Part shown: piece after piece, positions 1 through 15,309 of the stretch
How the letters are laid out: each line of letters opens with the position of its first letter
Position numbering within the stretch: position 1 is the first letter of the stretch
DNA from: Chloroflexota bacterium
Lineage (GTDB): Bacteria > Chloroflexota > Limnocylindria > Limnocylindrales > CSP1-4
Reading direction: 5' to 3'
DNA: 63,733 nucleotides
NCBI GenBank assembly: GCA_021813655.1
Contig: JAKAJU010000172.1
Coordinates: forward strand, 1-63,733
Position numbers and translations under genes: made by a program
The notes under the pieces: generated by a model
Seen by the model: the letters and a program-made list of their open reading frames with translations, nothing else
Databases searched by the model: none
What the model was told of the DNA's origin: nothing

Positions 1-492
1 TGGACCCTCCATGCCGGTGACTCGATGCAGGCACGCATCTGGAACCCACAGTCGGGTTCGGGTCCCGCGCGGTTCTCGTTCACGATGCCCGCGCCACCCG
101 CGACCGCCCCGGCGATCACCAGCGTGTGCGTCACCTGGTTCTTCCAGGGCGTGGGCACGATCGGTCCAGGCGCGGGCTTCCGGGTCGACGGCGCGGGCTT
201 CGGCACGCATGCTCCCTACGACGGGGTCTCAACGTACTTGCAGATCGCCGACCTCACCGGGGGCTGGGGCGCGGGCTTCCAGGACGCGGGTGGCCAGGAC
301 GCCGTCCACGTGCACGTGACGACCTGGAACGACAACGCGATTCTCCTCTACCTGACCGGTGCCTATGGTCAGAACGGCTGGATCGTCCACCCTTGGGACC
401 GGATGCAAGCACGGGAGTGGAACCCACAGACCGGGACAGGACCCGCGACGTTCGACTTCACGATGCCGGATTACGCGACGTGTCCACAGTGA
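1..492 (+). CDS. hypothetical protein, 3' part of an ORF open to the window edge; contains an internal duplication
   Basis: Frame 1 is open from nt 1 (WTLHAGDS precedes the listed Met at 25) to TGA 490-492. The motif W-x-x-H-x-x-D-x-MQAR-x-WNPQ-x-G-x-GPA-x-F-x-FTMP occurs at both ends of the translated segment. Confidence 0.45.
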   Translation, partial: WTLHAGDSMQARIWNPQSGSGPARFSFTMPAPPATAPAITSVCVTWFFQGVGTIGPGAGFRVDGAGFGTHAPYDGVSTYLQIADLTGGWGAGFQDAGGQDAVHVHVTTWNDNAILLYLTGAYGQNGWIVHPWDRMQAREWNPQTGTGPATFDFTMPDYATCPQ

Positions 493-809
493 TCAGATGG
501 TGGCGGTCATGTCCGCGGTGACGTAGCGACATCCGGCGTCGGAACTCCAGGGGCGACCGCGGTGGCCGAGAGCTTGGGCAGCTCGGCCGAGGCGGCCCGC
601 TCCGCACGGGTCTGAGGTTCGAGCGAGGGAGCTCGCGCCGCCCGCCCAGGTGTCCGCCAACGCCCGCGAGGTCGGTCGGCACGACGCGGGTCATGGTGTG
701 GGCTTCGGAAACCATCGCAACCCGCGAACCCGCCGACTCGAGCCCGCGGCACTGCTGACGTCAACCGCGTCGCCGGATCGCGCCTCAACGCCGGCAAACC
801 CGTTCCACG

Positions 810-1286
810 TCAGCCGATGTCGCGCACTCGAGAGGAGACGGTGAGGTCGCCCGGCACTAGCACTTCGAGTAGCACGCCCCGCGGATGCCGGACTCCGGCC
901 CAGTAGGATCGAGCTGACTGTTCCGCGGTCGCCGGAAGGGCACGGACCGCACTGAACCATCGCATGTCGGCCACAAACACTCGTTCGGCGCCGGAGGTCA
1001 CCTCGTAGATGTGCCCGAGGCGGCCGAATTCCACCGCGAAGCCGACAGCGTCCTCCTCGGAGAGGCAGGCGAAACAGCACTGCGCCCGGGCCGGACAGTC
1101 CGCGAACTCGCGCGACCGCACGGCCTCAAGTACGGCCTCAGTCGTGCGCTGATCGTTCCCGGGTTCCGCCTGGCCGAGACGCGCCAGCCATCGGCCGGGC
1201 AGCCGGCGCTCCCCCGGACCGAGATCCTGCCCCGTCACTAGGTAGAGGCGCCGCGGCGTTTCCTGCCACAGCAACGTCCGATCCAC
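810..1286 (-). CDS. hypothetical protein, DUF2441-like pattern (tentative)
   Basis: Only the C-terminal ~158 aa of track ORF 810..1511 look protein-like (LEAVRSREFADCPARAQCCFACLSEEDAVGFA...GHIYEVTSGAERVFVADMRW). The N-terminal part overlaps the upstream gene and is Arg-rich. In-frame GTG at 1286 is preceded by GAGGAAG. Confidence 0.5.
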   Translation of the reverse strand: MDRTLLWQETPRRLYLVTGQDLGPGERRLPGRWLARLGQAEPGNDQRTTEAVLEAVRSREFADCPARAQCCFACLSEEDAVGFAVEFGRLGHIYEVTSGAERVFVADMRWFSAVRALPATAEQSARSYWAGVRHPRGVLLEVLVPGDLTVSSRVRDIG

Positions 1287-1389
1287 CTTCCTCAGCTGTC
1301 GAGATGCCCTCCTGTGGTCTGTCACAAGATCCGGCGTGGTGTTGGCCCGCGCCCGGGCTCTGCCGCGGGCCCGCCGGGCGCTGAGGCGG

Positions 1390-2460
1390 CTACCGGGCGA
1401 AGCGCCGCTGACGCAGCACGTCAACGAATGCCAAGCTTCCGTCCGAGTCCCGGAACCGCCAGAACGTCCAGCCGTTCGTCGGCGGGTACTCACGTCCGGG
1501 TGGTGCGCCAACGATAGACTTCCGGGCCATGCCGCCAGCGATCGAGAGGGAGTCGTACGTCACACCGTTCCAGGCCACCCTGCCGTCCGCCTCGATGCGA
1601 GCAGTGAGCTTCTGGCCCTTGTACGTCGTCTCGATGTCGAGCGGCAGCGCGACGATGCCTGACGAGATCAGATCCTTGAGTGTCACGTGGCGCCAAGGGG
1701 TCTTGTCCGGGGCCGCCGGTTGATCGATCACGACCGTCGCCGCGCCGACCGCCGGCGGCGCCGGGGCCTTCTGAGCAGCGGGCGTCACCAGGACCGATGG
1801 AGCGCCCTGGTAGACGAGCGAGACGGTCGCGCGGCCGAGGCTTTGGCGCACATCGGTCAGGGACAGCGCGGGAACGCGCTTGTGGATCAGGTGGAGGAAG
1901 TCCGTCGGTGGTTCGATCCCCACCAGGCTCTCGATGGCGTGTCTGACCTGACGATCAACGAAGTACTGGCGCCACAGGTCATCGATGATCGTGCCCTGAA
2001 GCTGGGCCTTGGACAGGAGCATGAGGGTGCTCTGGCTGTCCGGCTGGTCGGAGGCAATGACGACGCGCTTGAAGAGCTTCTGGGAGATCGGTACCGGAGC
2101 GTGCGCGTTGTAGACGCGGTACTCGTTCCCGTCCGTCAGGACGATCCACTCGACGACGCCGGCGACTCCCGCGTAGCCCATGACCTGACCGGCCCAGTGG
2201 TCAAGGTTCTCTCCGAGAGCCTTCGCCTCGACGAAGAGTCGCAGGTTCCCGTGCACGAAGAGAGCGTAGTCGACGGGGTTGTCGCCCTTCCTGAGTTTGT
2301 ACTCGCAACGCACCTCGTCGAGGTCTTCAACGTCCCAGCCGAGGGCACGTAGCACCGGCTCGATCAGGGCGTGCTTCGTGTTCTCCTCGCCGATCGCCTG
2401 CCCTTGGTGCTTCGCGATCCGCTCCCGAACCTGAGCAAGAGCCACCGCGACGTCGTTCAT
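1390..2460 (-). CDS. PD-(D/E)xK nuclease (type I restriction enzyme HsdR N-terminal-like domain) fused to a C-terminal RAMA/DUF4357-like domain
   Basis: N-terminus EENTKHALIEPVLRALGWD...PVDYALFV...LFVEAKAL gives a D...ExK nuclease motif typical of HSDR_N. A Pro/Ala linker follows. C-terminus is ARIEADGRVAWNGVTYDSLSIAGG...PTNGWTFWRF...LAFVDVLR. Confidence 0.8.
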   Translation of the reverse strand: MNDVAVALAQVRERIAKHQGQAIGEENTKHALIEPVLRALGWDVEDLDEVRCEYKLRKGDNPVDYALFVHGNLRLFVEAKALGENLDHWAGQVMGYAGVAGVVEWIVLTDGNEYRVYNAHAPVPISQKLFKRVVIASDQPDSQSTLMLLSKAQLQGTIIDDLWRQYFVDRQVRHAIESLVGIEPPTDFLHLIHKRVPALSLTDVRQSLGRATVSLVYQGAPSVLVTPAAQKAPAPPAVGAATVVIDQPAAPDKTPWRHVTLKDLISSGIVALPLDIETTYKGQKLTARIEADGRVAWNGVTYDSLSIAGGMARKSIVGAPPGREYPPTNGWTFWRFRDSDGSLAFVDVLRQRRFAR

Positions 2461-2672
2461 CGGTGCCTACACCTCCCGAGCGGAGTGTAGGTGGCTGGGC
2501 TCACGCGAAGAAGGCCGGCAACGAACACCCGGATCACGATCGGAACATGGTGTCCGCGCGGCCCGGGGCACCGCCGCGTCGAACCGCAAGGCGGCGTCCG
2601 GACGAGGGATGGGCGTCAGTGGCCGCCGCGGCGACGTTCAGCGACCGCCCGAATGAGGGTCCGAGGCCGCGG

Positions 2673-2847
2673 TCACGCGAGCTGAGCCGACTTCGTCAGG
2701 ACCTCACGGACCGCGAAGTAGGCGGGTTTCGAGTGCGCCGGGTCGGTGAACAGCGCCAGGACTGACCGGGTGAGTGCCCGTGCCTTCGTCCGTGAGGGTC
2801 CAGAACGAGATCCTCTGGACGCCCGCGTACGAGCGGCGGACTGTCAA
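2673..2847 (-). pseudogene. frameshifted mini-ORF (~58 codons if repaired), start overlaps the SIR2 stop
   Basis: TTG 2847-2845 overlaps the SIR2 TGA 2846-2844. This frame reads (M)TVRRSYAGVQRISFWTLTDEG and then degenerates. The +1 frame from 2786 reads KARALTRSVLALFTDPAHSKPAYFAVREVLTKSAQLA-stop but has no start codon of its own. Confidence 0.25.
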
Positions 2848-3872
2848 CTAAAGAGCCACGACCATTCCTTGCCGGCAACGAAGCGGGTGAATCCGCCTGT
2901 CTCGACGTGCGTCTCGCCAATCGGGATCCGAGCATTGGTAAGTCTGTCCACTATCGGTGCGGCGTCTGACCCCGCGACGACCTGGACGCGACAGCCGGGC
3001 ATGAGGGCGTCGGCCATCAGACGGAGGAACGGCTCGTCCGCGGCACGCCACCCGATGAGCAGTAGCCGCGTGGCCTTGGCCAAGCTGAGCCTGACCTCGG
3101 CGACGTGGGCCTGCGGACATTCGAAGGCGGACTTAGAGGCCAGCGGAATGGCTAGCGCCGGGAACGCCCAACGGCCATCGCCGGTCGTCGGCTCGGCGTT
3201 GGCCACCAAGGCGAAGTCGTCGCGTGAGAACTCCAATTGGTCAACGAGCCGGATCATCTCGTTCTTGCGCCAATCGCGGTCCCCTCTGTCAGGCCCGGGG
3301 CCCGCGACCGGGTGTGCCCACGTGACGGAGCCGTGAACCTTGATCAGGGACGTGCCTCGCCAGCCAAGGTAGCTGCCGATGTCCCTGAACTCCCAACCGA
3401 GCTGTTGCGTGCAGGCCTGCTCGAGGATCGTGTCGTAGTTGAAGGTGACGTATGTGACACTCTCGCCCGTGGTCACGCGCCACTCCTCGATTGCATCGAC
3501 CAGGTCCGCGTAGTTGGTGAGCCCGTTGCCAGCCTGTGGCCACAGGCTGCACTCCGTCAGCATGTCCTGCAGGTAGAACCTGACCGCGGCGAGTTGCTGC
3601 CGCAGGCGTGGGGAACTCATCGACCGTTCGTTGTGGAGCTCGAGAGCCGTCTCGACAGGCACGCCTCGACCCACAGCGCGCCGGACGTCCGACATGAGCG
3701 CGGCCGCGACCCCGTACCGGCCGACCGTGTCGCCGAAGACGGCCCGATTGCCGAAGAGATCGTCGGCGAGCGGTGGTTGTCGCTGCAGCTGCCACTCGTT
3801 CAAGCCCGGCCGCAGATTCGCCCGGTCGACCGAGTCGTATGAGGCGCCGGCACCGAAGACAACCACCAACAC
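2844..3872 (-). CDS. SIR2-like (SIR2_2 family) protein, predicted NAD+-consuming effector
   Basis: VVVFGAGASYDS (Rossmann GAGxS), VTFNYDTILEQ (N-x-D), LIKVHGSVTW (catalytic His) and LLLIGWRAADEPF are all present. GTG at 3872 lies 6 nt after GGAGG (3883-3879). The upstream part of the track ORF is Arg-rich and was rejected. Confidence 0.8.
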   Translation of the reverse strand: MLVVVFGAGASYDSVDRANLRPGLNEWQLQRQPPLADDLFGNRAVFGDTVGRYGVAAALMSDVRRAVGRGVPVETALELHNERSMSSPRLRQQLAAVRFYLQDMLTECSLWPQAGNGLTNYADLVDAIEEWRVTTGESVTYVTFNYDTILEQACTQQLGWEFRDIGSYLGWRGTSLIKVHGSVTWAHPVAGPGPDRGDRDWRKNEMIRLVDQLEFSRDDFALVANAEPTTGDGRWAFPALAIPLASKSAFECPQAHVAEVRLSLAKATRLLLIGWRAADEPFLRLMADALMPGCRVQVVAGSDAAPIVDRLTNARIPIGETHVETGGFTRFVAGKEWSWLFS

Positions 3873-4141
3873 GGCCAGCCTCCATTGACGGTATCCTCGC
3901 GGTCGGTCCGCCTCAGCTTCTGCTCGGCCACGTCTGTACCTGGCGTCGCGAGGCACCTGCCCGGCGCGGAGTCGTCCGCGCCTGCAGCTTCGCCCCGAGC
4001 GGCCTGACCCGTGAGGCGCGCACACGGGGGAGACGCCAGCCGGGCGCGGAGGGCGCCACGAGCCTTCCGGCTAGCCTGACGCCCGACACACGTGTGCCGA
4101 TCTACCGGCCGGGCGCGGCCTCCGCGTGCCGGCGACGCGCG

Positions 4142-4315
4142 TCAGGTCTTGTCGACCACCTCCGCTGTCGGTGCGTCGCGCTTGACGACGGCAATCGCGC
4201 TGTAGCAGCTGGCCTTGTCGCGCATGAGCTCGGACGACGCCATGATCTCGTGGTTCGCGCCGCGGATGCGCCACATGAACTGTCCGGTCGCGCTGCGGAC
4301 GATCTCGAAGTACAT
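4142..4315 (-). CDS. YegP/DUF1508 (UPF0339) family small protein, 57 aa, not in the ORF track
   Basis: Own translation: MYFEIVRSATGQFMWRIRGANHEIMASSELMRDKASCYSAIAVVKRDAPTAEVVDKT-stop. The pattern FEI..x..G.f.wRl.a.NgEI.a.Se.y..K.s....I..vk..A is characteristic of DUF1508. A GGGGG run lies 7 nt upstream of the ATG. Confidence 0.75.
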   Translation of the reverse strand: MYFEIVRSATGQFMWRIRGANHEIMASSELMRDKASCYSAIAVVKRDAPTAEVVDKT

Positions 4316-4569
4316 CGATTGCCCCCTGGCTAGTCGCCGGCTGGGGTCGCCTGCCCCGACTCGCCAGCTCCCCGCGAGCCTACGCCCCGCCCCTGACGCA
4401 TGGCAACACGGCGAGGCAATCCCTGCCAGCGTTCGGCGAGATCTGGACCCCTGGCATCGGCCACATCCGAGCCTGCAGTCTCGGCGGCCACGATTTCCAG
4501 TTCGTGTTGCTAACCGGTCGCTCCTGAGTGAGGTATGTGGGTGACCACACCCCCTTCAGGAGACAGCCG

Positions 4570-5502
4570 ATGAACCCCCAGCTCCTCCCTGCCCCCGCCC
4601 GCGACGACGTCCCGGCCTGGCAGCGGACGGTCGTCGCCTTCCTCGCCGAGAAGGAGCGGCGCTCGGGGTCCCGGCGGACCGTCGAGAGCTACGCCCGGAT
4701 GCTCTGGCCATTCCTCGACCGGGTTGGCTCGCCCGAGCAGGTGGTACCAGCCCATGTCCTCGCCTGGGCCTACGGCATCGGCGCCTCAGGTCGCGAGCCC
4801 TCGTCGGCGACGGTCGGTGCCCGGATCGCGTGTCTGTCCTCCTACTACCGGTTCCTCATCCGCATGAACGTCACGACGGCGAACCCGTGCGACGCCCTCG
4901 AGCGCCCCCGGAGCGTGCAATCCGTCGCGCGGGGTCTCACCGCCGACGAGGTCCGCCGCCTCCTCGCGGTCGTCCCCGACACGGTGGCCGGCCGTCGGGA
5001 TCGGGCGCTCCTGCTCACGTTCGTCCTCACCGGCAGGCGGCGGGCCGAGGTGATCGGCCTCACCGCCGGGGACATCAGCATCGAGGGTGAGACCGCGTTC
5101 TACACGTATCGCGGCAAGGGCGGCAAGATCGGGCGGCGGGAGCTCCCCCGCCCCGCCTACGCGGCCCTGTGTGCCACGCTCGCCGACGCCGGGCTGTCGC
5201 TGGCCGACATGGACCCCGCCGCCTCGCTCTGGCAGGCAGCGGCCGGGACGCGGGGCGTGACGAGCTCGACGTTCTACGCGCGGTTCCGCCGGTACCTCCG
5301 AGCCGCCGGGCTCGCGCCCTCCGGGCTGCACATCCTCCGCCACACGGCGGCGAAGCTCCGCCGCGACGCCGGGGCATCGATCGAGGCCGTGTCCGCGTTC
5401 CTCGACCACTCCAGCCTCGCCGTTACCTCGGTCTACCTCCGGCGGCTCGAGGGCGAGGCCGATCGGACGTGGCCCGAGGTCGCGATCGCGATCGGGCTGT
5501 GA
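4570..5502 (+). CDS. tyrosine recombinase / phage-type integrase
   Basis: N-terminal SAM-like domain (TVESYARMLWPFL). Catalytic residues: R in TGRRRAEVIGL, HILRHTAA (HxxR) and the Tyr in AVTSVYL. ATG 4570 lies after GGAGA; the track start at 4528 is an alternative. Confidence 0.9.
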   Translation: MNPQLLPAPARDDVPAWQRTVVAFLAEKERRSGSRRTVESYARMLWPFLDRVGSPEQVVPAHVLAWAYGIGASGREPSSATVGARIACLSSYYRFLIRMNVTTANPCDALERPRSVQSVARGLTADEVRRLLAVVPDTVAGRRDRALLLTFVLTGRRRAEVIGLTAGDISIEGETAFYTYRGKGGKIGRRELPRPAYAALCATLADAGLSLADMDPAASLWQAAAGTRGVTSSTFYARFRRYLRAAGLAPSGLHILRHTAAKLRRDAGASIEAVSAFLDHSSLAVTSVYLRRLEGEADRTWPEVAIAIGL

Positions 5503-5605
5503 GGGCGCGCCGCGCCGGACCGCCGTCCGCGCATCGACGTCACGAAGGGACCGACATGGGCCATCCGGATCGGTCGCCGCTCAGCGGCTTCATGGCATCC
5601 CGCGA

Positions 5606-6424
5606 CTACGCCTGCCCGACCTCGTCAGTCTGCCGCCGGGCATGCACCCACCGGCGCCGTCGCGCACGACTCGCGCACCGCGGGCTGCAGAACCGCTGGC
5701 GCGGGTCCGACACGAGGAAGAACCGGCCGTCATCCTCGCACTCCGCGAGCGGGTAGCGGGTGGTCACGAGCAGAGCGGCCGCGTGGTAGGCATGCCCGAC
5801 GAGGTCCGGTGCCTCGACCGCGAGTCGATAGCGGGCCGGAGGGCCTGCGCCACCGTCCTCCCCCACGTCCCAGTCGACCTCCGCCTCGACGCGCTCCTGG
5901 CATCCCTCGAGGCCGCTGCTGAGCATCCACGCGACGAGGATCGACATCTGAGCGAGCAACTCGTCGTCGTTCGCGGCCCGCGCGGCGAAGAGCGGCCGAA
6001 CGGCCGGTTCGAACCCGTCCCGCAGGGCGCGCAGGGCATCGGCGTCGCCGGCGACCGCAGCCTGCAGCGTGCTCGCGAGCCGCAGCGTCGCCGAGAGGTG
6101 CGTCGCGGTCTGTTCCCAGTCGGCCCAGGGCTCGCGCAGATCGCCACCGGGCTCGCTGTGCCGGAGTAGGCCGTACCGGCGGACGAACTCCACGGCATCG
6201 GTCGGTGTCCGCACCGCGGCGAGGTCGAAGACAAGGTCGCGCTCGGTGATCGGGAAGTACTCCTCGATCCCGAGGGGATCGAGCTCGATCCAACCCTTCG
6301 CGTAGCGCGCCTTGGGGCCGCGGATCCAGGGCCTCGTCGCCGTCCGGACGTATCGCGCGTAGAGAGGGGCTTGAGAGATCACGTCATCCACACGGTAGCA
6401 CGCACCATCTGTCAGAGCAAGCAC
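5606..6424 (-). CDS. hypothetical protein with C-terminal CGNR-like zinc-finger motif
   Basis: Protein-like translation runs from about VLALTDGACYRVDDV to ...CEDDGRFFLVSDPRQRFCSPRCASRARRRRW. The start is uncertain (in-frame GTG at 6424, 6391 and 6382). The upstream part of the track ORF is low-complexity. Confidence 0.5.
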   Translation of the reverse strand: MLALTDGACYRVDDVISQAPLYARYVRTATRPWIRGPKARYAKGWIELDPLGIEEYFPITERDLVFDLAAVRTPTDAVEFVRRYGLLRHSEPGGDLREPWADWEQTATHLSATLRLASTLQAAVAGDADALRALRDGFEPAVRPLFAARAANDDELLAQMSILVAWMLSSGLEGCQERVEAEVDWDVGEDGGAGPPARYRLAVEAPDLVGHAYHAAALLVTTRYPLAECEDDGRFFLVSDPRQRFCSPRCASRARRRRWVHARRQTDEVGQA

Positions 6425-6455
6425 ACGGTAGATGCCACATCTACCGTGTATTATA
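6424..6455 (-). promoter_or_regulatory. perfect 11-bp inverted repeat adjacent to a TATAAT box (minus strand)
   Basis: cacggtagatg-cca-catctaccgtg at 6424-6448. The reverse complement of 6450-6455 is TATAAT. A half-site cacggtag recurs at 6391-6398. The region is locally AT-richer. Confidence 0.35.
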
Positions 6456-6745
6456 CCTCCGAACAGCGTCCCTGTCGGCGGGGGCAACGTGGAGTCGGAG
6501 ATCGCTGCGGTGAGAGTCACGCTCACGGAACGGACGTGGTGCGGTGACGCCGCGCCCGAGGCACCGACAGGGCTCGGACTTGGATGCGCCGACGCGGACA
6601 GCGCCGGTCGCTCGCCAGTCGCCGAGGAACGATCCGGATGAGCGCGCGCGGCGTCCGTCGCCTGAGGACCGTGAGTGTGGGCGACAGGACGCAAGTGGAA
6701 GGGCACCGCGTACTCGCGGGCGGTGCATGGGACGTATCGTCGGGG

Positions 6746-6918
6746 ATGGTGCCGGCGGAATCGACATCGGACCCGCTCGTGACGGCCCTCGCCCAGCTCG
6801 TTCGCGACCGGTGGGCCGCCGAGCGCGGCGACGGCGAGAAGCTGGTTGCCTCGGCACGCGTTCCGAGCAACATGGTGACCATGGTCCGACAGCGCTCGAA
6901 CGTCGATCGGACCTCAGC

Positions 6919-6922
<4 letters not shown>
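6746..6922 (+). CDS. small hypothetical protein coupled to the serine recombinase
   Basis: MVPAESTSDPLVTALAQLVRDRWAAERGDGEKLVASARVPSNMVTMVRQRSNVDRTSA. Its TGA (6920-6922) overlaps the recombinase GTG (6919-6921) as GTGA. Third positions are GC-rich. The start is uncertain. Confidence 0.3.
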
Positions 6923-8461
<1,539 letters not shown>

Positions 8462-8616
8462 ACCGAGGTGCCCTGAGGCGACGGGATGATACCACCTGCC
8501 GACGGGACGGCCACGAGCCGCAGGTCGCGCGCGGCGGTGCGACGTCCGAGGAGGCGGTGCGCGGGCCGGATCAGCCGGCCCGCAGGTTCGTCTCGTCAGC
8601 CCGCGGCCTTGCTCGG

Positions 8617-8700
8617 TCAGTCGAGCACCTCACGGACCTTGTTGCCGAGCGCCTCCGCGGTGAAGGGCTTGTCGAGGAAAGCGACGTCCCCGTCGGGGAG
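8617..8700 (-). pseudogene. relic of the 3' end of a response-regulator receiver domain
   Basis: Only the last 27 codons look real: LPDGDVAFLDKPFTAEALGNKVREVLD-stop, matching the (A/G)xxFLxKPFxxxxLxxxV tail of REC domains. Upstream in the same frame is antisense glpD. Confidence 0.3.
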
Positions 8701-8757
8701 CCACGTCGGGTCCGGCGGACCCGTCCGCCGCCGCGGCCGCTGCACTACGATGGCCAC

Positions 8758-10479
8758 ATGACCGATGAGATCGCGATCGCCGCGGCCACCACGGACCCCG
8801 CCGCAGCACGTCGCGCGGACCTCGCGGCGCTCGCGAGCGAGGCGTGGGACGTCGTCGTCGTGGGCGGCGGCGTCACCGGGGCGGGGATCCTGCTCGACGC
8901 CGTCTCGCGCGGGCTTCGCGCGGCGCTCGTCGAGCAGAGCGACATCGCGGCGGGGACCTCCAGCCGGTCCTCCCGCCTCATCCACGGCGGTCTTCGATAC
9001 CTCGAGCAGTTCCACGTGGGACTCGTCCGCGAGGCCCTGTCGGAGCGTGCCCGCCTGCTCGACCTCGCGCCGCACCTCGTCTCGCTCCGGCCGTTCGTCT
9101 TCCCCCTCTACGGACCGCCGTTCGCCACGCGGGCGTTCTATGGCGCGGGCATCGGCTTCTACGACGCCCTCGGGTCGGCGCGGAAGGGCGGCGTGTCGCG
9201 CCACCTCGGCGTGCGGGCGACGCTCGAGCTCGCGCCGCCGCTCCGCCGCGAGGGGCTCCGCGGGTCGATCGTGTACCACGACGGCGCGGAGGACGACGCG
9301 CGCTATGTGCTCGCCGTCGCCCGCACGGCCGCGGGCCTGGGCGGCCTTCCGGTGACGCGCGTCCGCGCGGACGGCCTCGTCCTCGAAGGTGGCCGCGCGA
9401 CCGGCATCGTCGCGCACGACCTCGTCGGCGGCGACGACCTGCGGGTCCGTGCTCGCCACGTGATCGACGCCACCGGGGTCTGGGCCGCGCGCCCGGAGAG
9501 CCCGTTCGGGGGTGCCCGGATGATCCCGAGCCTCGGGTCCCACATCCTGGTACCGCGCGAGCGGATCCCCGTCAAGCACGGGATGACCCTGCGGATCCCC
9601 GGCAAGGTGGCGTTCCTCGTGCCGTGGCCCGAGTTCTGGGTGATCGGGACGACCGACGCCCCGTACGACGGGAAGCCGGACCACCCGTCGGCGAGCCGCG
9701 CCGAGGTGGATCGGCTCGTCGAGATCGTCAACGCGGCCCTCGCGGTCGACCTCACGGTGGATGACATCGTCGGGACGTACGCCGGCCTCCGCCCGCTCGT
9801 CGGCGATGCCGAGGGCGGCGGGACGGTCAAGGTCTCGCGGGAGCACCGGGTGAGCATCGACAGGACCGGCCTCGTCCGGATCGGCGGCGGCAAGTACACG
9901 ACGTACCGGCTCATGGCCCGCGACGCGGTCGATGCCGCGCTCGGATCGGACGCGGCGCGACGGCCGTCGGCGACGGCGGACCTCCCACTCGTCGGGGCAG
10001 CGTCGCGGGCTGTCCTCTCCGGGCTCGCGGACCGGATCGCGCAGGACGCCGGGCTCACGGCGGACCAGGCCACGCGTCTCACGCGGCGTCACGGGACGGA
10101 GGCGATGGCGGTCGTCGAGCTCGGCCGGCGGCGGGACCTCCTGCGGCCGCTCGTGCCCGGCCGGCCCTTCCTCGAGGCCGAGGTGGTCTGGGCCGCGCAC
10201 CGCGAGATGGCGCTCTCCCTGGACGACGTCCTCGCCCGCCGTTTCCGCCTTGCCATGGAGCTGCGGGACCGCGGCGCGTCGATCGCGCCGCGCGTGGCGG
10301 ACCTGCTCGGCGCGGAGCTCGGGTGGGACGCAGCCCGCCGTGCGCGCGAGATCGCCGCGTACCTCGACAACGCCCGACGCGAGTACGCGGTGCCCGGCGT
10401 TGAGGCCAGCGTGGCGGCGGAGCCGGCGGCCGCGCCGGCAGCCGCGGACCCGGGGGCGCCGACCTTCTCGGAGGCCTGA
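8758..10479 (+). CDS. glpD: FAD-dependent glycerol-3-phosphate dehydrogenase
   Basis: [54 protein letters not shown] is a typical GlpD N-terminus. In-frame ATG at 8758; the track start at 8557 was rejected. Confidence 0.9.
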
Positions 10480-11987: not shown

Positions 11988-12009
11988 CGCTCCGCGGACG
12001 CCGGGACCC

Positions 12010-12909
12010 CTACCCCTTGGTGGAGCCCAGCGAGAGGCCCGAGATGAACTGGCGCTGCGCCGCGAAGAAGACGATGAGCGTCGGGATCGCGACGATCACC
12101 GACCCGGCGGCGATGAGGTTGTTGTCCACGAAGAACTGACCCTTGAGGTTGTTCAGCGCGGACGTGATCGGCAGCTTGGACCCGGTGCGCATGAGCAGCA
12201 GCGCCCAGAAGAAGTCGTTGTAGATCCAGGTGAACTCGAGCACGGCGAGCGCGGCGAGCGGAGGCCGCACGAGCGGCATGATCACCTTCCAGTAGATCTG
12301 GAAGGTGTGTGCGCCGTCCACCACCGCCGCCTCGGTCAGCTCCTTCGGGAGCGTCTTCATGTAGTTCGCGAGCACGAAGGTGCAGAAGCCGAGCTGGAAG
12401 GCGACGTGGATGAGGATGATCCCCACGTACTGGTCGTAGAGGAGCCCGTTGTCGCTCAGGGGCTTCGGGAACGGCAGGATCAGGTACATGCGGAAGAGCG
12501 GCGTGATGATGACCTGGGGCGGCAGCAGGTTCCCGGCGGTGAAGAGCATCAGCATCGCCAGGTTGAACCGCCACGAGAACCGGGCGAGCGTGAACGCCGC
12601 CATCGAGGCGAGCAGCAGGGTGAGGATCACCGCCGGCACGACGATGATGATCGTGTTCACGAAGTACCGGATCAGCTCGGCGTCGTTCCAGGCCCTGACG
12701 TAGTTGTCGAAGTTCAGGACGCCCGTGAACGAGACGTACCCATGGGTCGCGGTGTCCGAGTAGGGCCGGAGCGACGTGTAGAGCGCCCAGACGAGCGGGA
12801 GGAGCCAGACCAGCGCCGCCGCCAGGAGGAACGCGTGCAGCGCGACCCGGCGCCACCGGATCCCCTTCCTGTTCAGCGGGACGCCTCCCGGCATCGTCGC
12901 CGCGCTCAT
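12010..12909 (-). CDS. carbohydrate ABC transporter permease
   Basis: Six hydrophobic segments and an EAA-type loop (LTEAAVVDGAHTFQIYWKVIMPL). ATG 12909 overlaps the upstream stop (ATGA). Confidence 0.9.
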   Translation of the reverse strand: MSAATMPGGVPLNRKGIRWRRVALHAFLLAAALVWLLPLVWALYTSLRPYSDTATHGYVSFTGVLNFDNYVRAWNDAELIRYFVNTIIIVVPAVILTLLLASMAAFTLARFSWRFNLAMLMLFTAGNLLPPQVIITPLFRMYLILPFPKPLSDNGLLYDQYVGIILIHVAFQLGFCTFVLANYMKTLPKELTEAAVVDGAHTFQIYWKVIMPLVRPPLAALAVLEFTWIYNDFFWALLLMRTGSKLPITSALNNLKGQFFVDNNLIAAGSVIVAIPTLIVFFAAQRQFISGLSLGSTKG

Positions 12910-13901
12910 TCGCCGATCCCCTTCTGGCTGCGCGTGAGGTAGAGGACGATCGGCCCGACCGAGATCGTGAGGAGCACGACCGCGATCGCGGACCCGAACC
13001 CGACGCGGCTCGCCTCGCCGATGATGTTGTTCGTCACGAGGACGGAGAGCAGCTCCAGGCCGTTGAGCCCCTTGTTGATGATGAAGACGAGGTCGAACGC
13101 GCGGAGCGACTCGATGAGGGTGATGACGAGGATCACGATGTTGATCGGTGCCATCACCGGGAAGACGACGCGGAAGAAGGTCTGGACCTCGTTCGCGCCG
13201 TCCACCTTGGCCGCCTCGCGCAGGGTCGGGTCCACCCCCTTCAGGCCGGCCAGGTACAGGATCATGATGTAGCCGATGTGGCGCCAGCTCGCGAAGACGA
13301 GCACGGCCCACAGGTTCAGGCTCTTGTTCCCCAGCCAGTCGATGAGCTGCTGGCCGTTCTGGCCGGTGGTGCCGAGCAGGTTGTTGATCAAGCCCTGCTC
13401 CGGCGCGTAGAAGAGCTGGGCGATGAAGCCGACGATCGCCAGGGAGAGCACGACCGGGAGGTAGAGCGCGCTCTGGTAGAAGCGCGTGCCCCGCAGGTCC
13501 TTGTCCAGCAGCACCGCGAAGAGCATCCCGATAGGCGTGGCGATGAGGAGGAAGACGCCGAGCCAGATGAGGTTGTGCTGGACGGCCGGCCAGAACGGCT
13601 GGTAGATGCTGACGAGGTCCGAGTAGTTCTTCAGCCCGACGACCTTGATCCTGTCGAGCCCGCCGATCCCGTTCCACGACGTGAACGAGAGGAGGACCGA
13701 GAGGATCGTGGGGACCCAGACGAAGAAGATGTGGATGAAGGCCGGGATCCCCGCCATGAGGGCGAGGATGACCATGTCGCGCCGCGACAGGAGGAGGGGG
13801 CCCCGGCCCTTCCTGCCTGGCGTCACGAGGTCCGTCGCGGTCCCCCCGGTCACCGGGAGCGGGGGGACCTTGACGGACATCTCGGCGACGCGGTCGGTCA
13901 C
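12906..13901 (-). CDS. carbohydrate ABC transporter permease
   Basis: LREAAKVDGANEVQTFFRVVFPV is the EAA loop. The protein is a multi-TM MalF/UgpA-like permease. Confidence 0.9.
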   Translation of the reverse strand: MTDRVAEMSVKVPPLPVTGGTATDLVTPGRKGRGPLLLSRRDMVILALMAGIPAFIHIFFVWVPTILSVLLSFTSWNGIGGLDRIKVVGLKNYSDLVSIYQPFWPAVQHNLIWLGVFLLIATPIGMLFAVLLDKDLRGTRFYQSALYLPVVLSLAIVGFIAQLFYAPEQGLINNLLGTTGQNGQQLIDWLGNKSLNLWAVLVFASWRHIGYIMILYLAGLKGVDPTLREAAKVDGANEVQTFFRVVFPVMAPINIVILVITLIESLRAFDLVFIINKGLNGLELLSVLVTNNIIGEASRVGFGSAIAVVLLTISVGPIVLYLTRSQKGIGE

Positions 13902-13935
13902 CCGAGGATCCTAACCGACGCCTGTCAGCCTGGGA

Positions 13936-15309
13936 TCACAGCGGCGGGAGCGAGTCCCAGAAGGCCTGGATCTTGCCAAGGTAGGCGTCCAGGTCCTGGG
14001 TCGGGTTCCCGAGGAAGTCCTGCAGGAAGCCCTGCATCCCGTTCGGGCCGGCGAAGTCCGGCCGCGTGTCGCGGTCGAGGAACTGGGCGATCCTGTTCGA
14101 CCCGGCGAGGATCGTCTGCATCTGCTTCTGGAAGTCCGTGTAGCCGCTCGTGTCGGCGTTCTTGTTCGCGGCGACGTTGTTGGGGTTGCTCTTGAGGAAG
14201 GTGAGCTCGGCCTCCGGGGACGCGAGGCACACGAGGAGCGCCGTATCAGCCGCTGGGTTCGCATGCGTCTTGCTCAGCATGAGCCCGTCGATCGGGGCGT
14301 CGATCCCCATCTCGGCGTCCCACTCGTTCCCGAAGACCGGGAAGGGGAAGAACGCGAGGTCGTCGTGGATGGCCGGGTCGGGCGCCTGCTCACCGGCGAA
14401 GGTGCCGAGGAAATACATCCCGGCCTTCTTCGTGATCATGGCCTGCGCCGCGTCCTGCCACGTCCGGCCGAGGGCGCCTTCCTGGAAGTACGGCAGGAGC
14501 TCCGCCCACTTCTGGAAGACGGCCTTCACCCGCGGATCGGTCCACTTCTCCTTGCCGGCCATGAGCCCGACGTGGAAGTCGTAGCCGTTCATCCGCATGT
14601 TCAGGATGTCGAACGTGCCCATGGCCGGCCACCCGTCCTTGTCGCCGAACGCGAGCGGGACGAGGCCGTCCGCCTTCATCTTCTTGGCCAGGGCGATGAA
14701 CTCGTCCAGGGTCTTCGGGATCGCGTAGCCCTTGTCCTGGAAGAGGCTCTTCCGGTAGATCACGACCCACGGGTAGTTGTACATCGGGAGGAAGTACTGG
14801 TTCCCGTCCGACGCCGTGGATGCGGTCTTGTACGCGTCGGAGAACTGGTCGCCGACCTTCGCCCAGACGTCGTTCATGTTCGTCGCGAGGCCCTGGTCCG
14901 CGAAGAACTTCATCCGGTAGCCGGCGAACCACGTGAAGATGTCGTCCGGCGTGCCCTGAAGGTACGAGTTGAGCGCATCCTGGAACGCGCCGTGCTCGAC
15001 CGTGTTGATCGTGGTCTTCACGCCGGTCTGCTGCGTGCAGTAGTCCATCATGGCCTGGAACGCGGCCTTCGGGACGGCGTCGGAGAAGGCGGAGCCGATC
15101 GTGGTTGCGCCCCCCTGCGCGGGCGCGGACGCGGACGGCGCCTCGGTCGCCGGTGCCTGCGTCGCGGGGGCCTGCGTCGCTGCCGGAGCCTGGGTCGCCG
15201 GCGCGACGGACGGCGCCGGAGTCGCCGAGCTCGAGCACGCAGCGACCACGAGCGCGACCGCGACGAGCGCTCCCAGGCGCCTTCCCGGCCCGGGGATCGA
15301 CATGGACAT
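13936..15309 (-). CDS. ABC transporter extracellular solute-binding lipoprotein
   Basis: Signal peptide with lipobox VVAAC, then an A/P/T/Q-rich linker and a family-1 solute-binding body. Confidence 0.9.
   Translation of the reverse strand: MSMSIPGPGRRLGALVAVALVVAACSSSATPAPSVAPATQAPAATQAPATQAPATEAPSASAPAQGGATTIGSAFSDAVPKAAFQAMMDYCTQQTGVKTTINTVEHGAFQDALNSYLQGTPDDIFTWFAGYRMKFFADQGLATNMNDVWAKVGDQFSDAYKTASTASDGNQYFLPMYNYPWVVIYRKSLFQDKGYAIPKTLDEFIALAKKMKADGLVPLAFGDKDGWPAMGTFDILNMRMNGYDFHVGLMAGKEKWTDPRVKAVFQKWAELLPYFQEGALGRTWQDAAQAMITKKAGMYFLGTFAGEQAPDPAIHDDLAFFPFPVFGNEWDAEMGIDAPIDGLMLSKTHANPAADTALLVCLASPEAELTFLKSNPNNVAANKNADTSGYTDFQKQMQTILAGSNRIAQFLDRDTRPDFAGPNGMQGFLQDFLGNPTQDLDAYLGKIQAFWDSLPPL

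Follow-up and report, generated by a model that had tools for sequence, protein, structure and literature searches.

Four cargo genes on an integrated element at tRNA-Pro(CGG) of a Chloroflexota bacterium, including a candidate restriction nuclease and a solitary SIR2-family protein

In a 63,733-nucleotide contig from a Chloroflexota bacterium (the whole stretch is referred to here as the window), a run of minus-strand genes at positions 810-4315 encodes a nuclease and a SIR2-type protein side by side, which raises the question of whether these genes make up one defence system or were brought together as separate passengers. A sequence-only reading had proposed a single undescribed defence block of five co-oriented genes. 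The evidence described below makes it likely that the region is the cargo arm of a mobile element integrated at tRNA-Pro(CGG), assembled from independently acquired single-gene modules and not from one co-evolved system. The passengers, which were probably acquired separately, are a solitary restriction-type nuclease, a solitary SIR2 enzyme, a protein of ADP-ribosyltransferase fold and a small YegP protein.

The integrated element

The right-hand limit of the element is a tRNA-Pro(CGG) gene (8385-8461, minus strand; ARAGORN; Rfam tRNA, 63 bits), whose 3' end is overlapped by the last 22 or so nucleotides of a large serine recombinase (6919-8406, plus strand). This recombinase matches Resolvase above the cut-off (33 bits) and the phrog_95 integrase family (E 6e-35), with a Pfam Recombinase score of 18.8 bits falling below the cut-off of 21.1. 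Further in lie a 261-residue hypothetical protein (5606-6391, minus strand), which is called in public assemblies and has no family match in Pfam, PADLOC, NCBIfam or PHROGs, and a Xer-like tyrosine integrase (4570-5502, plus strand; Phage_integrase, 66.8 bits; phrog_1, E 1.6e-32) that is divergent from the YegP gene. The setting of an integrated element next to tRNA-Pro, as first proposed, is thus confirmed by two recombinases, one of them overlapping the tRNA. A recombinase beside a tRNA gene and an atypical composition, the two marks of a tRNA-integrated genomic island, are both present. No direct repeat of the tRNA 3' end was found in positions 1-9000; for a serine recombinase none would be needed. 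An empty site was not found among the recovered contigs, every one of which carries the element, ending about 450 bp past the M23 gene.

GC content at third codon positions (GC3) is 0.78 in the DUF2441-like gene, 0.84 in the nuclease gene and 0.82 in the SIR2 gene, against 0.918 +/- 0.044 for 26 long open reading frames outside the element. The lower third-position GC that the sequence-only reading had noted by eye therefore holds for these three genes and not for YegP, which is host-like at 0.91, as is the tyrosine integrase at 0.93. Three open reading frames outside the element also have values of 0.79-0.84, and the shift is real but modest.

Gene content and linkage of the cargo genes

Four genes in the region are real, and all are on the minus strand: a DUF2441-like gene (810-1274, 154 residues), the HsdR_N-RAMA nuclease gene (1390-2460, 356 residues), the SIR2_2 gene (2844-3872, 342 residues) and the YegP/DUF1508 gene (4142-4315, 57 residues). 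The fifth gene of the sequence-only reading, a "mini-ORF", is most likely a pseudogene scar. No convincing gene was found in 2461-2843, and a two-frame translation of 2673-2847 (minus strand) joins into a peptide that aligns with positions 266-310 of the 311-position Pfam Glyco_hydro_10 profile (E 0.26) and with the C-termini of the xylanases 3NIY and 1VBR (E 0.06-0.12). Each of these matches is weak, yet they agree in their C-terminal position, and the stretch is probably a frameshifted relic of the extreme C-terminus of a GH10 glycosidase. Such a scar would mark the point where recombination joined the SIR2 module to the nuclease module. The intergenic gaps measure 269 nt between YegP and SIR2, 383 nt between SIR2 and the nuclease and 115 nt between the nuclease and the DUF2441-like gene, which argues against a tight operon; these gaps, together with a relic whose start coincides exactly with the SIR2 stop codon, point to separate gene histories. 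With their shared orientation, the four genes could be transcribed by read-through.

The domain assignments of the sequence-only reading stood up. In Pfam and PADLOC searches RAMA, HSDR_N and DUF1508 scored above their Pfam cut-offs, SIR2_2 and DUF2441 scored below theirs, and one PADLOC candidate system, PDC-S14, was matched in part. Searches of the element with Pfam, PADLOC, NCBIfam and PHROGs profiles recovered no TIR, HerA, pAgo, STAND, methyltransferase or specificity-subunit gene, which bears out the claim that the canonical partners of SIR2 and HsdR_N proteins are absent.

The YegP protein is a clear DUF1508 match (52 bits, cut-off 22; E 5.5e-14) and also matches phrog_1422 (E 6e-13), with a single domain where E. 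coli YegP has a tandem pair. For the DUF2441-like gene a longer span reaching 1511 was discarded as an over-long open reading frame, and the database gene call gives the identical 154 residues. Its product scores 20 bits against Pfam DUF2441 (PF10386; cut-off 25) and matches phrog_5663 (E 1e-17), and its family profile matches 2AUA, the structure of the DUF2441 prototype BC2332, at E 2e-21. An AlphaFold model (pLDDT 95.9) retrieves the same structure with Foldseek (E 2e-8, TM 0.65), followed by weak matches to proteins of ADP-ribosyltransferase (ART) fold, namely the cholera toxin A1 subunit, Arr, Tpt1 and the RES toxin. Judged by profile and model, the protein is homologous to BC2332 and PF10386 and has a predicted ART-clan fold, in line with the placement of DUF2441 in the ADP-ribosyltransferase clan (PMC7955679). 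It is shorter than BC2332 (154 against 224 residues), and the conserved PSR motif of the family reads PAR, so that a near-invariant serine is replaced by alanine. With the SIR2 protein, this places two NAD+-using folds within 3.5 kb, which may not be coincidence.

Do these genes travel together elsewhere? Within 8 kb of SIR2 homologues, tblastn found no nuclease, DUF2441 or YegP gene in the best 80 of 173 genome loci (about 8 kb surveyed per side), and all-against-all clustering of open reading frames found no conserved neighbour family in the same loci. Seen from the nuclease side, no SIR2, DUF2441 or YegP gene lies beside its homologues in 87 metagenome and viral loci (about 6 kb per side), and DUF2441 relatives occur alone or amid unrelated contexts. 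Profile HMMs of all three families agree with tblastn, apart from one match to the RAMA domain only (locus L073), where a GIY-YIG-type nuclease-RAMA fusion lies immediately downstream of SIR2 with an integrase alongside. As the SIR2 protein there is truncated at its C-terminus, L073 has the look of a scar, not of a functional pair. Among close relatives, the nearest SIR2 homologue with any flank (L086, 66% identical) has a different downstream gene from that in the window, contigs of the closest SIR2 relatives (66-68% identical) end before the upstream neighbours, and nuclease homologues of 72-82% identity also have different downstream genes.

These surveys weigh against a reading as a lineage-restricted multi-gene defence, in which the RAMA nuclease would sense or cut foreign DNA and the SIR2 protein, the ART-fold protein or both would act as NAD+-consuming abortive effectors. 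Such a system would account for four co-directional genes with GC3 lowered in all but YegP, for a nuclease flanked by two NAD+-using folds, for the recurrence in L073 of SIR2 followed by a nuclease-RAMA fusion with an integrase adjoining, and for a block that is identical across all recovered assemblies of the organism. These assemblies, however, represent the same strain or population and hence are non-independent evidence, the L073 arrangement is scar-like, the gaps are long with a pseudogene relic separating SIR2 from the nuclease, and co-occurrence of SIR2 and HsdR_N-RAMA homologues was absent from all 80 + 87 loci save for the one RAMA-only exception. We regard this reading as very unlikely. 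The sequence-only reading had itself named linkage of the homologues in other genomes as what its case depended on, and since they are unlinked there, as seen from the SIR2, nuclease and DUF2441-like sides, the single-system reading fails on its own terms. Separately, the nuclease-RAMA fusion after SIR2 in L073 could hint at recurrent pairing.

A candidate modification-reading nuclease

The nuclease combines an N-terminal HsdR_N-type PD-(D/E)xK domain (Pfam HSDR_N, 28.3 bits; cut-off 25.1) with a C-terminal RAMA domain (44.3 bits; cut-off 35.2), and its catalytic residues D64, E78 and K80 are invariant among 25 homologues. The RAMA part matches the C-terminal domain of CcrM (6PBD, E 0.009) and, weakly, the RAMA domain of MPND (7YDT, E 0.29). 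REase-RAMA fusions have been predicted to act as modification-reading restriction enzymes (PMC4738411, Iyer et al. 2016; PMC11037411), and whether RAMA recognises modified DNA is disputed (PMC11037411). The window protein matches this architecture, already predicted as a type IV restriction enzyme: it shares the N-terminal PD-(D/E)xK domain, whose D...ExK motif is intact, and the C-terminal RAMA domain above cut-off, it has no methylase next to it in the window, and its homologues occupy defence-island and mobile-element settings. It is accordingly described here as a candidate solitary type IV-like restriction endonuclease. Its RAMA domain would bind DNA, possibly reading N6-methyladenine, and would target the N-terminal domain to cut invading DNA; with targeting through RAMA, the enzyme would be type IV-like and would need no cognate methylase. 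No biochemically characterised member with the HsdR_N plus RAMA architecture was found in the literature searched, and a part in classical restriction-modification is possible, given that methylases adjoin some homologues (L115, L132). Unlike type I HsdR, the protein has the N-terminal nuclease domain only, with no helicase/ResIII motor, and the element lacks HsdM and HsdS genes. Membership of PDC-S14, a PADLOC candidate single-gene system, was considered on the strength of a match (E 2.9e-11) that aligns residues 253-352 with profile positions 182-270 of 280; this covers the RAMA part only, the C-terminal RAMA-like region being what the two have in common, and membership was rejected as the N-terminal domain differs and there is no full-length match.

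Over 1000 homologues of the nuclease were found, many at 70-82% identity. Their immediate neighbours, among which 255 PADLOC families were matched, are led by Phage_integrase (6/117), DNA methylases, ResIII, MmeI and BrxL. Elsewhere, then, the family resides in a defence-island and mobile-element neighbourhood of integrases, methyltransferases and BREX or restriction genes. Recombinases related to the two in the window occur near nuclease homologues in 12/87 loci, and seven other loci have, upstream of the nuclease homologue, an integrase 53-74% identical to the tyrosine integrase of the window. The genes between the tyrosine integrase and the nuclease vary across the four loci inspected, and in L165, L147 and L087 the two are directly adjacent and divergent.

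It is this interval, empty in those three loci, that YegP and SIR2 fill in the window, which would fit a two-gene module in which YegP would bind nucleic acid and serve the SIR2 NADase as sensor or regulator; in Menshen, a sensor role has been proposed for tandem DUF1508 domains (PMC12065111). However, no YegP/DUF1508-like open reading frame lies near SIR2 homologues in the best 80 of 173 loci, the two genes are 269 nt apart, and GC3 is host-like in YegP and not in SIR2. A YegP-SIR2 module is therefore highly improbable, and separately acquired passengers remain the preferred reading of this interval.

The SIR2 family and its possible roles

Translation of the SIR2 gene starts at a GTG at position 3872, with GGAGG 6 nt upstream, and a 393-residue open reading frame was rejected in favour of this start, which agrees with the database gene call; the 342-residue product is identical to database protein P0001. 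The protein scores 21.2 bits against Pfam SIR2_2 (PF13289), below the cut-off of 24.5; many of its homologues carry a precomputed PF13289 match. Across 116 homologues the G7-A-G-A-S11 motif, N145 and H180 show no variation, D147 is conserved in at least 90%, and a structure model (pLDDT 96.7) shows one SIR2 fold without further domains. From its intact NAD+-binding and catalytic core, this protein would be an NAD+ hydrolase.

The SIR2 subunit of SIR2-HerA (Nezha) is the nearest fold and the best sequence-profile match: the best structural matches of the model are 8SUW, 8SUB and 8WLD (E about 5e-7, TM 0.4-0.5), and the best profile match among solved structures is 8W9L (E 7e-6). Both proteins have the GAGxS, N-x-D and His core, and the window SIR2 lacks the sirtuin zinc module. 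The likeness is limited by TM-scores of 0.4-0.5 at 13-17% identity and by length (342 against about 380-415 residues), and a HerA ATPase is absent both from the window and from the surroundings of the homologues in the best 80 of 173 loci. Other known systems were rejected: Thoeris, as the SIR2 protein carries no SLOG domain, the element no TIR ThsB, and the ThsA match reaches only E 0.25-0.43; DSR1/DSR2, which are about 1000 residues long with a C-terminal sensor region, against 342 here and 330-390 among the homologues; and SPARSA and Avs5, as no APAZ/pAgo or STAND occurs in the block or in the homologue neighbourhoods, EfAvs5 being a weak fold match.

The family gave 173 matches in 185,579 species genomes, spread over Acidobacteriota, Nitrospirota, Actinomycetota, Chloroflexota and Bathyarchaeia, and in the examined loci (the best 80 of 173) it is always solitary and mostly amid housekeeping genes, with lepA adjacent in 4 loci and every PADLOC family among the neighbours a singleton. 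These neighbourhoods, the near absence of the family from viral contigs, the lost serine of the DUF2441-like protein and the pseudogene relic within the block would all suit cargo with no role in phage defence, accessory or decaying, in which the SIR2 protein might act as an NAD+-dependent enzyme of housekeeping type and the nuclease might serve element maintenance or addiction. Against this, SIR2_2-type proteins without the sirtuin zinc module typically act as NADases in immunity, the nuclease family clearly occurs amid restriction, BREX and integrase genes, and the catalytic residues of both proteins are all intact, so that the absence of any defence role appears improbable.

On the preferred reading of separately acquired modules, a further view of the SIR2 passenger is that the solitary 330-390-residue family represents a new, partner-less class of NAD+-consuming enzyme, which either carries its own trigger and brings about abortive infection as a single gene or has a non-immune function. 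The fold is predicted very confidently and no solved SIR2 matches it better than a TM of about 0.5; we nevertheless hold this view to be unlikely. If it were true, the nuclease-RAMA genes that directly follow SIR2 in the window and in L073 would give a first indication that an NADase and a modification-reading nuclease cooperate.

Domain content and layout of the gene block

The block lies at 810-4315 on the minus strand, in a high-GC genome fragment (~72% GC in the window), between the C-terminus of an M23 peptidase (+) at the window's left edge and a tyrosine integrase (4570-5502, +). It comprises a DUF2441-like gene (810-1274, -), an HsdR_N-RAMA nuclease gene (1390-2460, -), a spacer of 383 nt (2461-2843), a SIR2_2 gene (2844-3872, -), a second spacer of 269 nt and a YegP/DUF1508 gene (4142-4315, -). 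Beyond the integrase are a hypothetical gene (5606-6391, -), a large serine recombinase (6919-8406, +) and tRNA-Pro(CGG) (8385-8461, -). Gene starts match public gene calls. The genes listed by the sequence-only reading are real; its 393-aa SIR2 and 233-aa DUF2441 ORFs are over-extended. A near-identical contig, DAIEQJ010000004 (MAG GCA_027347925.1), encodes proteins 99-100% identical across the element.

RAMA (44.3 bits), HSDR_N (28.3 bits) and DUF1508 (52.2 bits, the only domain of the YegP protein) score above their Pfam cut-offs; SIR2_2 (21.2 bits against a cut-off of 24.5) and DUF2441 (20 bits against 25) score below and are backed by family-level evidence. The weak SIR2_2 call is rescued by residue conservation in 116 homologues, where G7-A-G-A-S11, N145 and H180 never vary and D147 is kept in 90% or more, together with a confident AlphaFold model (pLDDT 96.7). 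The weak DUF2441 call is rescued by the match of a profile of 58 DUF2441-like proteins to the prototype structure 2AUA (E 2e-21), on which the window protein's model (pLDDT 95.9) superposes with a TM of 0.65. The nuclease residues D64, E78 and K80 do not vary among homologues. The earlier observation of intact catalytic motifs is thus confirmed, as is the absence of known partners: no TIR, HerA, pAgo, STAND, methylase or specificity gene is present. Its impression of lowered third-position GC is borne out by computation for the DUF2441-like (GC3 0.78), nuclease (0.84) and SIR2 (0.82) genes against 0.918 +/- 0.044 for 26 long ORFs elsewhere in the window; YegP (0.91) is not shifted and, like the integrase (0.93), is host-like. 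Total GC falls to about 0.65 at 12001-15000, where ORF GC3 is 0.96-0.99, so this dip, in contrast to the block, is a matter of amino-acid composition and not of foreign origin.

One part of the earlier description needed correction, as no convincing gene was found in the spacer at 2461-2843 that had been listed as a mini-ORF. Directly after the SIR2 stop codon, the first frame reads ...GVQRISFWTLTDEGTGTHP and the second carries on ...LFTDPAHSKPAYFAVREVLTKSAQLA-stop. The joined two-frame peptide weakly matches Pfam Glyco_hydro_10 over its final 45 positions (E 0.26) and two solved GH10 xylanases at their C-termini (E 0.06-0.12), all at the same terminal position, and the GH10-type stretch (2673-2847) begins exactly at the SIR2 stop codon. 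We read this stretch as the probable frameshifted relic of a truncated GH10-type glycosidase gene, a scar that recombination would have left between the modules of SIR2 and the nuclease.

At the right-hand limit of the element (8385-8406), the serine recombinase gene overlaps the 3' end of tRNA-Pro(CGG) in antisense with its last ~7 codons and stop codon, suggesting that this gene extends right up to the element's end and that the tRNA end was rebuilt by integration. No direct repeats of the tRNA-Pro 3' end that could represent att sites were found in window 1-9000, where an Rfam scan returned the tRNA only. A search for an empty integration site through exact GlpD protein look-up found that every contig carries the element and all stop at the same place, leaving the left border undefined. 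All independent assemblies with this region (L001, L174-L176) end ~450 bp past the M23 peptidase gene start, pointing to a repeat, or to a junction that varies between strains, at that point, which could be the element's left border. Towards its C-terminus, the peptidase gene holds a diverged internal tandem duplication of an 89-nt segment (1-89 and 379-467, 378 nt apart, 72% identity). A promoter and terminator scan of 600-4700 found nothing, as expected at ~70% GC.

The HsdR_N-RAMA nuclease and its neighbourhoods

The nuclease has >1000 homologues, many of them 70-82% identical, and some are named at source as 'restriction endonuclease' or 'predicted type IV restriction endonuclease'. The combination of a restriction-endonuclease fold with RAMA was described by comparative genomics as a predicted N6-methyladenine reader in restriction systems (PMC4738411); in subsequent work, nuclease-RAMA fusions are given as type IV candidates still awaiting tests, and a preference of RAMA for methyl-adenine is described as unconfirmed (PMC11037411). 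The RAMA part of the window protein matches the C-terminal DNA-binding domain of CcrM (6PBD, E 0.009) and, weakly, MPND (7YDT, E 0.29), and it is the only part shared with the PADLOC candidate single-gene system PDC-S14. The most frequent families among 117 immediate neighbours of nuclease genes include Phage_integrase (6/117), N6 and N4 methylases, MmeI, ResIII, McrB-like AAA_5 and BrxL. PADLOC families matched among neighbours number 255 for the nuclease, against 63, all singletons, for SIR2.

A tyrosine integrase 53-74% identical to that of the window lies upstream, mostly divergent, in the nuclease loci L132, L124, L102, L165, L147, L087 and L115; a serine recombinase related to the window's is near the nuclease in L167 and L100, and a more distant relative in L136. 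The reading of such pairs as a co-inherited integrase-nuclease core was rejected on identities that do not track each other and on differing intervening genes in four inspected loci: integrases 73-74% identical are paired with nucleases only 48-52% identical, and the opposite pattern is also seen. The intervening genes are a Panacea-domain antitoxin in L132, an IrrE-type peptidase in L115, and a GT4 glycosyltransferase with a GH130 enzyme in L124, where a NERD nuclease lies on the integrase's far side; L165, L147 and L087 have no gene in between. In a comparison of the window with integrase-nuclease loci, coding regions alone aligned, with no intergenic DNA in common. A cargo hotspot near the integrase fits better than a co-inherited core. 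The GT4 and GH130 genes of L124 are intact and occupy the position equivalent to the putative GH10 relic.

From its architecture and neighbourhood, we propose that the nuclease is a candidate solitary restriction-type enzyme, in which RAMA would bring the PD-(D/E)xK domain to foreign DNA that is possibly modified. It is the best supported function in the block.

The SIR2, DUF2441-like and YegP proteins

The SIR2 protein is single-domain, with no fused sensor, and no zinc-binding cysteine cluster is conserved in the homologue alignment. Its nearest solved relatives are the SIR2 subunits of SIR2-HerA, both when sequence profiles are compared (8W9L, E 7e-6) and when folds are (E about 5e-7, TM 0.4-0.5); classical sirtuins and Avs5 rank lower. 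A word-indexed search gave 152 relatives; among the 120 listed, two are 66-68% identical and the rest 31-40%, mostly 330-390 aa long. A scan of 185,579 species genomes located 173 SIR2-family loci, and the best 80, fetched with 8 kb each side, come from Acidobacteriota, Nitrospirota, Actinomycetota, Chloroflexota, Bathyarchaeia and others. Viral contigs almost entirely lack the family (one weak match). Pfam families on 147 immediate neighbours were led by lepA (4) and integrase (3), with many singleton housekeeping families, and PADLOC matches were singletons only. In four Acidobacteriota/Bryobacterales genomes (L078, L080, L060, L067), lepA ends on the same strand 4-7 nt before the SIR2-family gene, a position right after a housekeeping gene that is unusual for a defence gene. 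One metagenome contig (L005, 540-6461) carries three different SIR2_2 genes (344, 262 and 355 aa) inside 6 kb. The SIR2 protein would most likely be an NAD+ hydrolase, a predicted activity that, with its housekeeping-rich neighbourhoods, may serve immunity or another role.

Pfam assigns DUF2441 to the ADP-ribosyltransferase clan (PMC7955679), and the structural matches after 2AUA are weak ones to the cholera toxin A1 subunit, Arr, Tpt1 and RES toxin. The family conserves E46, E50, R53, P-S-R (61-63), Y90, Y124-W125 and E137; in the window protein, Ala replaces the Ser of P-S-R. A word-indexed search gave one relative, and an exhaustive HMMER search was then used. Of three relatives looked up, one stands by itself, one follows an 80-aa ORF and one neighbours an IS1595 transposase. 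The closest in the exhaustive search (L177, 234-994; 41% identical) has the 80-aa ORF upstream across a 15-nt gap, a possible two-gene arrangement lacking in the window. For YegP, tandem DUF1508 domains have been compared to ssDNA-binding Whirly/PC4 folds (PMC12065111).

Linkage among the block genes and its meaning

The sequence-only reading proposed that the block is one undescribed defence system and named homologue linkage in other genomes as a test; that test was run and was negative. Searches by tblastn found no window nuclease, DUF2441-like or YegP homologue in the best 80 of the 173 SIR2 loci, and all-against-all clustering of their 4932 ORFs gave no neighbour family shared by more than a handful of loci; clusters that looked like such families were antisense ORFs within the SIR2 gene. 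The closest SIR2 relative with any flank (L086, 66% identical) has a convergent 547-aa gene downstream and no nuclease. In the opposite direction, no SIR2, DUF2441-like or YegP homologue was found in 80 metagenome and 7 viral nuclease loci. HMMs built from the SIR2, nuclease and DUF2441-like alignments were applied to every ORF in the six reading frames of the fetched loci. The DUF2441-like profile matched no ORF in SIR2- or nuclease-anchored loci, the SIR2 profile none in nuclease loci, and the nuclease profile gave one weak match at SIR2 loci (31 bits, RAMA region only), in L073.

This Sulfotelmatobacter MAG locus (L073, 6864-11625) holds an integrase, a SIR2 gene truncated after ~residue 200, a GIY-YIG-RAMA ORF and a type I HsdM methylase, and is the only fetched locus outside the window where a nuclease-RAMA fusion comes directly after a SIR2-family gene. 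The echo of the window is suggestive, though with a broken SIR2, and because of the truncation the locus was not taken as evidence for a SIR2-RAMA pair.

Cooperation between the genes has no support past their proximity in one organism, and the reading of the block as a single undescribed defence system is not supported. What stands of the earlier proposal is defence-type cargo on a mobile element, and the region would be the cargo arm of an integrated element holding independent modules. The proteins add to known kinds. Genes with "effector-type" domains can lie together in one orientation on a mobile element, as an attractive cluster, and still not form a system; two widespread single-gene families, the HsdR_N-RAMA nucleases and the partner-less SIR2 proteins, merit separate testing. 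For the nucleases, common beside integrases and restriction genes, the point at issue is whether RAMA truly reads adenine methylation. The solitary, uncharacterised SIR2 family is the most interesting remainder of the block, and it poses the question of how a SIR2 NADase could stay inactive when HerA, TIR, pAgo and a fused sensor are all missing.
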